Shown: in pieces, positions 28,369-31,540 of the stretch
Position numbering within the stretch: position 1 is the stretch's first letter
How the letters are laid out: every line of letters starts with the position of its first letter
NCBI GenBank assembly: GCA_963827275.1
Contig: CAWHAA010000009.1
Coordinates: 104,923 to 168,922, forward strand
DNA from: an uncultured Spirochaetota bacterium
Lineage (GTDB): Bacteria; Spirochaetota; UBA4802; UBA5550
Length of the DNA stretch: 64,000 nt
Direction of reading: 5' to 3'
Made by a program: the position numbers and the translations under genes
The notes under the pieces: model-generated
The model's input: the letters and a program-made list of their open reading frames with translations, nothing else
Databases searched by the model: none
What the model was told of the DNA's origin: nothing

Positions 28369-28639
28369 TTGCGCTCCTGTGCTGACGGCGTTTTCTCTTT
28401 ATAACCATCATAATCATAACGGGAAGGCGTTGATATATGTCAACTATTAATGGGCGGCTTGGACCGGCGTCCGGTTCCGGCGGGTCTGTCCGGTATTCAG
28501 GGCGGAGGCGTCTGATTAATCGGCGGCACCGTCGCATGACGGCGCAATTAGTACCGTGCATCACAGGGGTGTCATACAATCCGTTCCGGATTCAGTATAA
28601 CTCCCCGTGTGCAGTAAACGGCAGGTTTACATGTTGAAA

Positions 28640-28711
28640 TTAAAATGGTAAAAGCGCGATTAACGCGATCGCGGTAAATACCATTGCGAGCACCATCAAT
28701 GTCTGCTTCAT
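28640..28711 (-). CDS. Small hydrophobic peptide, 23 aa: MKQTLMVLAMVFTAIALIALLPF
   Basis: AGGGGG SD upstream; close paralog at 30793-30864. Below the ORF-track cutoff. Confidence 0.7.
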   Translation of the reverse strand: MKQTLMVLAMVFTAIALIALLPF

Positions 28712-28958
28712 GTCATATCCCCCTTAAGACCAGTGAGATCTATTTTTTTTGTGTAAACAAAATTCCGCCCAAGTGGGCTTTAATATTGTTATAGGAATTA
28801 TTAATATATATTTAATTATATGTCTCGTTAATTTCTGATTAATCAGATATTGGTATAAATAAATAATTATTCTTGTAATTATATAGCTTCCTGATGGCAT
28901 ATTTCATAGAAATTGTATTGAAAACCGCATATTGGATGTTTTCTTGAGGAGGCCCCCC

Positions 28959-30561
28959 ATGTCACAGCCGGACCGCAACAATCCCTACAGTTTCAACGAA
29001 TTCCTCGAATGGCGAAAGAATGTCGATTACTACGCCGACGATCCCTTCATCCAGAAGGTCGTGAAGCATTTCTGCGGACCGGACAGGAAAAAGGTCGATG
29101 CGCGGGCGCGCGTGATATCCGCGAAGGCATCGTTCCGGTGGCGCGACATGGCGGAGGCCATCGCCTGGCCGGAAAAGCGGCCCTACATGATGCACTACGA
29201 CGGCCATCACAACCGGATCGACCGGATCGTGCGGCCCCACGAGACGGAGATCATGGAACGGGAGGTGTTCGGCGAGCGCCTCTTTTCGGACGCCGTCACC
29301 CCCTGGGAGAAGCTCATCGGCATGTACATCATCTACCAGAACAGCGAGGCCTGTATCGCCTGCCCCCTGACCTGCACCGAGGGCCTGGTGAAGCTGCTGG
29401 AGAAATATGCGGACACGCCGGAGACGCGGCGCATCCTCGTGCACTGCAAGAACGGGATCGACGGCGAGGTGGCCATCGGCGCGCAGTACCTCTCGGAGAT
29501 ACAGGGCGGCTCCGACGTGCCGGCGAACCTGCTCGAGGCGGTGGAGGAGGAGGGGCGCGTGGCGGCTGTACGGGACCAAGTTCTTCTGCTCTGCCACCCA
29601 CGCGGATTACGCCGTGGTGACGGCGAAGCCGCGCGGCTCGGAGAAGGTGGCGCTCTTCGTGGTGCCCTCCTGGCTGCCGGGAGACAGGGAGAAGGAGATA
29701 CGCAACGGGTACACCATCGACCGGATCAAGTGGAAGATGGGAACCAGCGAGCTGACCACGGCCGAGCTCACCTTCAACGGCGCGGTCGCCTACCCGGTGG
29801 GGCCCCTGGACCGGGGCCTGGCAAATGTCGTGGGGATCGTGCTGACCTATTCGCGCCTGACCGTGGGCCTGGCCGCGGGCGCGAGCATGGCCCGCTGCTG
29901 CCGCGAGGCGAAAAAGTACAGCGAGTTCCGCGAGGCCTTCGGCCTGCGGATCGGCGGCTTCCCGCTGGTGAAGCTGCAGCTGCGCGGAGATGGAGCGGTC
30001 TCGCGCGGCGGACCACCGCCGGCTCGTTCAAGCTCTACAGCGAGTTCCTGGGGCTCGAGGGCGGACTGAAGGGCGGCCTGGTCGGCCGACGAGCCGCCTG
30101 CAATGCGGCGGAAGCGCTTTGACGTGCGCGAGCTCATCATGCTGCAGAAGATCACGGCGGCGGCCGACTCGACAGACATCGTGCGCACGGCGATGTCGAT
30201 CTTCGGCGGCCACGGCGTGATGGAGGACTTCTCCTCCCTGCCGCGCTTCTACCGCGACGCCGCCATCAACGAGCTGTGGGAGGGGCCGCGGAACGTGCTC
30301 CTCACCCAGATGCATAACGACATGAAGAGGGCGGCCGACTGGTACGGCCCGGCTGACTTCGTCGGGTCTGTGCTGCGCGGGGCGGACACCGCGCATATCA
30401 ATGCCTGTGCGGAGGAGATGGCGGAGCTCACCGCGCATCCGAACCTCTTCAGCGGCGATGAGAAGACGCTCGAGGTGTGCGGCAGGTGGGACCGGTTCTG
30501 CACCGATCTCTTTCATTCTTATCAGGATCTGGCCATGGCCGAGGTGGAGGGGGGCGCATAG
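28959..30561 (+). pseudogene. Acyl-CoA dehydrogenase (AidB-like), several frameshifts (possibly assembly indels)
   Basis: CPLTCT, QYLSEIQGGSD, LYGTKFFCS, RIKWKMGT..L.TAE, R.AFG..I..FPLV, FGGHG.MED..LPR.YRD...ELWEG..NV spread over three frames. Confidence 0.85.
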
Positions 30562-30792
30562 TGCGCGATCGCGCTGTGATGTTGATTCAGAGTAATCTTT
30601 TCTGATAAAATTACATTTTAGAATATACAAAAATAAATATATATTATTAGAAAATAACTATTATTTTATTCTTAAAAAATTCCACGGTATTCATGAAATT
30701 AATTGACTAATTATAACGAAAACAATAGTTATGTTTTAAATAAAGCCCATATAGGCGGAATATAAATATATAAATTTTTCAGGGGATGAACA

Positions 30793-30864
30793 ATGAAACA
30801 GACCTTGTTTGTTGTGGGCATGGTAATCACGGCAATCGCGTTAATTGCTTTAATGCCGTTTTAA
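30793..30864 (+). CDS. Small hydrophobic peptide, 23 aa: MKQTLFVVGMVITAIALIALMPF
   Basis: AGGGG SD, downstream terminator, paralog of 28640-28711 with synonymous codon differences. Confidence 0.7.
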   Translation: MKQTLFVVGMVITAIALIALMPF

Positions 30865-30903: not shown

Positions 30904-30939
30904 AAAAGGGATAGGTATTTTGATACTATCCCTTTTTTT
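30904..30939 (+). terminator. Rho-independent terminator after the small peptide gene
   Basis: AAAAGGGATAG-GTATTTTGATA-CTATCCCTTTTTTT. Confidence 0.75.
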
Positions 30940-30979
30940 GTTTATGGCCCTGTCTTTTGTTTATGCGCAATATACGCAA

Positions 30980-31074
30980 GGGGTCAGAGCAACTTTGACG
31001 GGGTCAGAGCAACTTTGACGGGGTCAGAGCAACTTTGACGGGGTCAGAGCAACTTTGACGGGGTCAGAGTAACT
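30980..31074. repeat. 20-bp tandem repeat GGGGTCAGAGCAACTTTGAC x4 plus a partial fifth copy
   Basis: Four identical abutting units, then GGGGTCAGAGTAACT. Confidence 0.95.
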
Positions 31075-31540
31075 GCTCTTCAATACCGGCGTAGCCGATA
31101 ACCCACTACCAGCTCTTAGCAGTATAATCACTTAAACAAAATAAAATACCCACTTATATATTTGAAACATAGAATTCTGGATTACCCGCCTGCATTGTTG
31201 CCCTGGTATAACTATTCCCGTTTTATTTTGACTTTTTCTAAATCAATGAGCTATTATAAAATAAGAATATTCATTCAGTTACGCGTAATCCATGCACAAC
31301 ACGTAGGATACTATCATGAAAAAAAAATCATACTATGGCTATCGTTTCTTTGTGTATTCGTCATGGATCTGTCATCTGGCCTTTATTGAGTGCAGGGGGA
31401 TAGTTTATAAACAGGGATGGGGGGATCGCAGGTAATGATGCGGTCCGGGTGCCATAAAAAGCATAAAATCCAGATAAAGAATTGATTTATTATCACCCCG
31501 GGCCTACAGTGTGATCATTCAATACAACTGCGGGGCATGT

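Follow-up and report, generated by a model that had tools for sequence, protein, structure and literature searches.

The closest described counterparts of the peptides reported here are small transmembrane regulators, peptide pheromones and type I toxins. Ibs toxins are multicopy and occur in tandem, and the LexA operator at tisB lies in a repressor-like position. The enterococcal PrgQ/iCF10 propeptide, which is 22–23 residues long and basic, then hydrophobic, belongs to the same likeness class as the streptococcal SHP peptides. SHP2 and SHP3, 23 and 22 residues in length, respectively, have active C-terminal octamers, according to the data given in PMC4162386. In the Bacillus cereus group, PlcR depends for its activity on the 48-residue PapR, whose gene lies 70 bp away from plcR, as described in PMC4147580. 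The account in PMC12648545 covers both small transmembrane feedback regulators, some of which are narrowly distributed (MgrB, YoaI, SafA and UgtS), and type I toxins that are tiny hydrophobic membrane peptides (IbsC, TisB and DinQ).

The window analysed here, a stretch of 64,000 nucleotides from an uncultured Spirochaetota bacterium (GenBank assembly GCA_963827275.1, contig CAWHAA010000009.1, positions 104,923 to 168,922), contains two genes encoding 23-residue hydrophobic peptides that share features with each of these systems. Like MgrB, YoaI, SafA and UgtS, the peptides are single helices, as predicted here, encoded by genes of their own under the putative transcription-factor box of a larger regulon. 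Unlike these proteins, to which no sequence similarity was shown, they have nearly no extramembrane domain and feature up to four paralogues per genome; MgrB, in contrast, is 47 residues long and carries periplasmic cysteines. A basic N-terminus, a hydrophobic body, paralogue pairs and a promoter box are shared with the SHP2/SHP3-Rgg systems, but the spirochaetal genes lack an adjacent rgg or RRNPP gene, the peptides have no acidic tail residue, the host is diderm, and the regulon exists without the peptide. As in the PlcR/PapR system, the palindromic box of the peptide gene recurs throughout a regulon of exported proteins; unlike PapR, the peptide is 23 residues long, is unlinked to any regulator and is apparently dispensable for the regulon. 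The small size and hydrophobicity of type I toxins are also shared, yet no antitoxin RNA, sequestration of the Shine-Dalgarno (SD) sequence or conserved mRNA fold was found, and the peptides generally carry no charge after position 3.

Two peptide genes in the window

The two genes, referred to as copies A and B, flank an acyl-CoA dehydrogenase (ACAD) gene. The relevant features of the window are as follows.

28640..28711, minus strand: peptide copy A, 23 residues, subfamily I; translation MKQTLMVLAMVFTAIALIALLPF, then stop
28719..28725, minus strand: SD-like AAGGGGG of copy A, from the sequence
28758..28783: palindromic regulon box of copy A, centred 59 nt above the ATG; 18.5 bits
28834..28847: second palindrome, TCTGATTAATCAGA, a putative site for a second factor, 64–70 nt above the box
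28959..30561, plus strand: AidB-like ACAD
30740..30765: palindromic regulon box of copy B, centred 40 nt above the ATG; 20.3 bits
30781..30786, plus strand: SD-like AGGGGA of copy B, from the sequence
30793..30864, plus strand: peptide copy B, 23 residues, subfamily I; translation MKQTLFVVGMVITAIALIALMPF, then stop
30904..30940, plus strand: intrinsic-terminator-like hairpin 3' of copy B

The first-pass annotation of this DNA had reported two 23-residue reading frames sharing 18 residues, and the translations obtained here agree: the copies are identical at 18/23 residues and 52/72 nucleotides. They differ by 9 synonymous and 5 non-synonymous codon changes, and the five synonymous codon pairs listed in that annotation are all found among the former. 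The selection on the peptide that it had deduced from this pattern is borne out by the values for the pair (Nei-Gojobori pS 0.81 and pN 0.15; Fisher p 7e-6). SD sequences precede both copies and, as also described earlier, a terminator follows only the second; this hairpin (30904-30936, -13.7 kcal/mol, with a T-run) is not kept at other copies of the family. When 100,940 small ORFs of the genome (G000) were scored against the A/B pair, four loci scored 70–108 and the top unrelated ORF 37. The pair previously reported as two paralogues is therefore real, but the genome holds four copies rather than two: A, B and the copies on contigs C2 (78% identical) and C5 (61–65%). On these comparisons, copies A and B are real genes.

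Two other features were observed in the vicinity. The genome-specific spacer after copy B contains, at 30980-31069, a tandem repeat with a 20-nt unit (GGGGTCAGAGCAACTTTGAC) present in four perfect copies and a partial one. At 31316-31389, a hydrophobic frame of 22 codons lies behind an ATG and a run of nine A residues, out of frame with that ATG; it could be another small ORF affected by a homopolymer error, and no homologue was found in the 16 other genomes of the genus. Elsewhere in G000, a repeat that has no relation to the peptide genes, at least 60 nt long and including TGATTAATCA, occurs at C5:48501, 53113 and 298239 and at C10:483784.

The ACAD gene is split over three frames in the assembly and has four single-base (+1) insertions relative to the intact 533-residue orthologue of G009 (87% nucleotide identity). 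Since rpoB and phoH2 are likewise frameshifted in this assembly (2/7 genes tested), the ACAD frameshifts are likely assembly errors, although four in a single gene are many. A link between this gene and the peptides, which the earlier description had implied, was rejected on gene order. In G009, about 220 nt separate hypA from ACAD and about 160 nt separate ACAD from a glycosyltransferase gene, versus about 590 and 980 nt in the window, and hypA adjoins the glycosyltransferase gene in G001, G010 and G014. The flanking arrangement of the two copies is specific to the window genome, and the neighbourhoods compared indicate that ACAD is a bystander, outside the peptide system.

Extent and conservation of the peptide family

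A profile built from 18 copies detected 19 full-length copies in 10 of the 17 genomes of the genus (E values from 1e-12 to 2e-5). All 19 ORFs are exactly 23 codons long. In the first 18 copies, pN was lower than pS in 153/153 pairs, which are not independent because the copies are related, and column conservation by codon position was 0.76/0.94/0.52. A metagenome scan yielded five loci, of which four are near-copies of genome loci and one is new. These figures indicate that the family is under purifying selection at the peptide level.

Small-ORF homologues were not found outside the genus, either in the other genera among 122 genomes of the order or in 401 sampled genomes of the phylum, nor were any found in viral contigs, phages or plasmids. 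Three weak matches outside the genus all fall inside frames of 317–396 residues. The libraries searched do not recognise the family, and neither had the first-pass annotation: Pfam gave sub-threshold matches only, NCBIfam had no match for four peptides, and PHROGs returned two weak single-member matches below cut-offs. By exact look-up, none of seven peptide sequences was present in a collection of 15 billion proteins. No description of the family or of the box was found in searches of the open literature that dealt with spirochaetal small transmembrane proteins and peptide pheromones, with biofilm motifs of Leptospira and with the core of the box. Among the small ORFs searched, the family is unannotated and restricted to one uncultured Spirochaetota genus.

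In G021 (L024:643-1551), the site of one of the three weak matches, the first 17 residues of a 302-residue ankyrin-like protein are signal-like and resemble the N-terminus of the peptide (E 0.004). This likeness may be due to chance, or may hint at an origin of the peptide from a signal peptide.

Subfamilies and genomic context

The genome copies fall into subfamily I (15 copies) and subfamily II (4 copies). In each of the 10 carriers, one subfamily I copy is found at a shared locus, downstream of rluD, DUF4416, archease and rtcB genes and often divergent from glpD. As far as the contigs extend, it is convergent with genes for TRL-like lipoproteins and a TonB-plug protein and with purD. The copy at this locus looks like a case of stable vertical retention and is the ancestral one, the window copies being located elsewhere. 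Copies A and B both lie in DNA missing from the sister genome G009, and the comparison identifies them as recent extras derived from duplication of a box-SD-ORF unit. In G004 and G010, units of the same composition are duplicated in tandem.

In five non-carrier genomes, the TRL gene leads on to glpD and the peptide gene is missing between them, and no diverged peptide was found at the empty sites of these five genomes, in which the TRL gene was found; G012 and G015, in which it was not, are left out of the comparison. In an RpoB tree of 16 genomes (G004 lacked a match), seven carriers group in one supported clade and two sit at an unresolved fork, with the non-carriers in three clades. This distribution does not distinguish between one gain and several losses.

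Subfamily II genes are located upstream of phoH2 in four of the 12 genomes with a phoH2 match. A role of the peptide as a phoH2 leader is unlikely, as the peptide ORF is followed by a promoter-like site of phoH2 itself (TTGCAA-17-TATTAT-like) and 8/12 phoH2 loci lack the peptide. As glpD and phoH2 flank some copies only, the neighbours yield no functional partner.

A palindromic box shared with other genes

The best clue to function, missed in the first-pass annotation, is a box shared by the upstream regions. The sole similarity upstream of the two window copies is a 21-nt element, whose core is CCRYM-YR-KRYGG with A/T flanks. It is found at all 16 subfamily I loci examined, about 38–64 nt above the start codon. 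A symmetrised version of the pattern occurs in 30/64 genomes of the bacterial family, including 17/17 of the genus, versus 0/64 for a reversed-pattern control. The box is thus present in all seven genomes of the genus without the peptide, and also in other genera, as expected if the peptide is an accessory modulator.

The consensus of 29 non-peptide sites is A6-CCCATC-CG-GATGGG-T6. A scoring matrix trained on these 29 sites, all from other genomes, retrieved 19 sites of at least 18 bits in the window genome, including both window boxes, and none with the reversed control. The C2 peptide box ranks first in the genome with 28.6 bits, a ranking that is not fully independent since the pattern used to gather the sites was generalised from peptide sites. 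Fourteen of the 16 subfamily I loci score at least 18 bits, with the box 38–61 nt from the ATG; the exceptions are G014a (6.1) and the second copy of G010, which is outscored by the box of its neighbour. In the four copies of subfamily II, the box is missing, the best score being 0.0. The box at 14/16 subfamily I loci, versus 0/4 in subfamily II, suggests that subfamily I genes are controlled by the regulator of the wider regulon.

The half-sites do not covary (17 matches versus 14.9 and 17 versus 15.6 expected, of 29), which argues that the box is a DNA site and not a hairpin. An RNA hairpin or bidirectional terminator was also rejected because the stem register switches between copies. By crude ORF calling, 2/30 sites lie between convergent ORFs, 12 are divergent, 9 are co-directional and 7 are overlapped by called ORFs.

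The position of the box differs between peptide genes and other targets. At 20/30 non-peptide loci, a -35-like TTG[AC][CA] hexamer starts 15.5–17.5 bp from the box centre, on either strand, and 20 of the 32 matches to this motif within 35 bp fall at that spacing. Located some 16 bp upstream of the -35-like hexamer, the box would have an activator-like position at many targets, with some 51 bp between its centre and the start site expected downstream. The hexamer is found at the corresponding spacing (about 16 bp) in 0/16 peptide loci, where, with the box at 38–40 nt, transcription in an activator geometry would have to start within the ORF. An overlap of the box with the promoter or leader of the peptide gene is therefore likely. 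A few secreted-protein genes have a box equally close as well, which makes the direction of control uncertain.

A second palindrome (TCTGATTAATCARGA) is found 64–70 nt above the box in 8/16 subfamily I loci with at most one mismatch. In the left spacer of the window, the TCTGATTAATC element occurs twice, at 28511-28521 (about 140 nt upstream of hypA) and at 28834-28847 (above copy A).

Box-associated genes and candidate regulators

Box-adjacent proteins were annotated in sets of 27, 21 and 18 (the first two overlapping) out of about 80 listed neighbours. Among them are Big_12, Big_5, Ig-like and cadherin-like proteins, LruC-domain proteins and adhesins. Other box-adjacent genes encode an EPS polyprenyl sugar transferase, Wzy, GGDEF/EAL (c-di-GMP) proteins, secreted lipases and esterases, a CocE hydrolase, and STAS and 7TM-DISM proteins. 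Many box-adjacent proteins have no family match, and the divergent neighbours include housekeeping genes that have nothing to do with the regulon. Example sites are L166-L195 and, in G000, C10:243277, C8:112102 and C2:183014. Taken at the level of gene content, the box appears to define an exoprotein/adhesin/EPS/c-di-GMP regulon in the bacterial family.

Individual arrangements were observed in several genomes. In G009 (L077:1235-1507), a 72-residue PEP-CTERM-like protein, named by eye from its C-terminus, is encoded directly under a box in this spirochaete and is followed by an exosortase. A 7TM-DISM gene and a divergent gene for an unannotated protein of 215–222 residues share one box at L181, L186, L188, L190 and L089. 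A STAS gene is boxed at L184 and L187, which suggests a partner-switching module in the regulon.

Candidate regulators in G000 comprise five NarL-type, two transmembrane LuxR-type, one CRP and four OmpR-type proteins. None of the 13 regulators scanned (one of the four OmpR-type proteins was left out) has a box upstream, and the cognate regulator of the box was not found among the candidates; no partner of the peptide emerged from neighbours or candidates. The half-site ACCCAT may resemble the NarL heptamer. Two paralogous membrane-anchored LuxR-type regulators (G000 C3:26770-28038 and C8:293496-295118) have several transmembrane-like segments and a C-terminal GerE HTH.

Peptide architecture

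The peptides consist of a basic N-terminus followed by about 19 uncharged residues, and in 15 of the 16 distinct peptides any charge is confined to the first three positions. Hydropathy values of 1.9–2.3 and summed membrane insertion free energies ranging from -1.7 to -4.9 kcal/mol predict a single transmembrane helix with short flanks. Conservation extends over the entire helix (mean entropy 1.04 at positions 4–16 versus 0.86 at positions 17–22). Residues M10, T13, A14, I15, L17, L20 and P22 are conserved and positions 6, 9, 12, 19 and 23 vary, 19 and 23 being hypervariable (entropy 2.36 and 2.16, respectively). The helical periodicity of conservation is weak (p 0.26; 0.097, 0.090 and 0.035 for ranges chosen afterwards).

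Discussion

We rank four readings of the peptide in decreasing order of probability: an intact membrane modulator, for which the chances seem evenly balanced, a pheromone precursor, a type I toxin and a structural surface peptide, the last three all being improbable. Of the options offered in the first-pass annotation, a regulator with a single transmembrane segment fits best; features of type I toxins were not found in the loci, nor was an RRNPP receptor found in the searches described below. The missing hallmarks of type I toxin-antitoxin and RRNPP systems, together with the existence of the regulon without the peptide, lead us to favour an accessory, intact single-pass modulator wired into the exoprotein/biofilm regulon and following an MgrB-like logic, a proposal that we hold about as probable as its negation.

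In such a modulator, the basic MK/MR end would reside in the cytoplasm, the 19 or so uncharged residues would span the inner membrane, and the terminal Pro-X would reach the periplasmic face. M10, T13/A14, I15, L17, L20 and P22 would pack against the helix of a putative partner, and a protein of the exoprotein/biofilm programme, active in membrane signalling or in building the surface, would likely be tuned by the peptide. As the box lies 38–64 nt above the start codon and lacks the -35 hexamer, the promoter or leader of the peptide gene is likely covered by the same regulator, which would probably act as a repressor there. The peptide would then be a feedback or counter-state element, with a logic like that of MgrB/PhoQ. 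Besides the missing box in subfamily II, the weak helical periodicity and the neighbours that yield no partner, two observations speak against the modulator: type I toxins, too, typically have dispersed and tandem copies, and the hypervariable positions 19 and 23 could be pherotype positions.

The latter observation belongs to an alternative that we consider unlikely, in which the 23-mer is a signal-peptide-like propeptide from which a site-2 protease or signal peptidase would release a C-terminal 5–8-mer, such as LIALLPF. Size and shape are those of the streptococcal SHP2 and SHP3, as far as these are described in PMC4162386, and a peptide gene situated within a regulon of mostly exported proteins fits the PlcR/PapR logic set out in PMC4147580. 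The peptide boxes are among the strongest of the genome, the hypervariable positions surround the invariant L17, L20 and P22, and an A-I-A motif is present at positions 14–16 in most subfamily I members, but subfamily II has M at position 16. The tail has no acidic residue, unlike SHP-C8, all copies are of one length, and conservation is no lower in the putative leader than in the tail. Receptor genes are not adjacent to the peptide genes at the annotated loci (both conserved loci, the extra locus of G014 and the window). RGG_Cterm (TIGR01716) has no match in G000, which is 92% complete, and RNPP_C (PF18768) none in 17 genomes, the latter being a weak and narrow model that matches only 1/14 control genomes; the 10 HTH_3 matches in G000 include none of the HTH+TPR-like type. 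A C-terminal peptide read by a membrane kinase or another non-RRNPP receptor that controls the exoprotein/biofilm regulon is conceivable, at a similarly low probability, yet the regulon persists in seven genomes of the genus and in other genera without the peptide, and the box is not in an activating position at the peptide genes. Quorum sensing in a diderm spirochaete, based on SHP-sized propeptides scattered and duplicated at a distance from receptor genes, with C-termini that vary by pherotype (positions 19 and 23), a non-RRNPP receptor and a new box in control of exoenzyme, adhesin, PEP-CTERM and EPS genes, is improbable as well.

Somewhat further down the ranking is a type I toxin of the Ibs/TisB/DinQ kind, i.e., a depolarising peptide under the operator of a global regulator and silenced by antisense RNA, which would give dormancy or persistence. 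The peptide is very short and nearly all transmembrane, like the 19-residue IbsC in the account of PMC12648545. Copies are dispersed and in tandem (four in G000; tandem pairs in G004 and G010), their presence versus empty sites is cassette-like, and the operator is in a repressor-like position. Across 20 loci, however, mRNA structure is not conserved (z-scores from +2.2 to -3.4), the SD sequence is not consistently sequestered (opening energies of 3–12 kcal/mol), and antisense terminators occur in two loci only. The check for antisense RNA called for in the first-pass annotation was carried out computationally and revealed no antitoxin: in 13 loci, the longest helix complementary to the flanks is within the range of 25 shuffles, except in two tandem duplicates, and Rfam gave no real match. 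Low z-scores for antisense pairing, obtained with 8 shuffles per flank, were not confirmed by these helix-length controls. Charged residues are missing from helix and tail, and the family is missing from the viral contigs, phages and plasmids searched. Least probable is a structural or accessory surface peptide that, as a small subunit or a hydrophobic component of the matrix, would be expressed together with adhesins and EPS and would not regulate them, which would agree with the regulon content, the extreme hydrophobicity and the strong SD sequences, but which is missing from 7/17 genomes of the genus that keep the regulon, has a box geometry different from that of many activated-looking targets, and has no apparent co-transcribed complex.

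The peptides add a previously uncalled small-protein family, tied to a sharp DNA box found family-wide, to what is known of uncultured Spirochaetota. The box is a result in itself, providing a regulon and a promoter geometry with which its regulator may be sought. An anonymous 23-mer thereby becomes a testable node, which may modulate a biofilm switch from within the membrane or, with lower probability, represent Gram-positive-style peptide signalling in a diderm bacterium.
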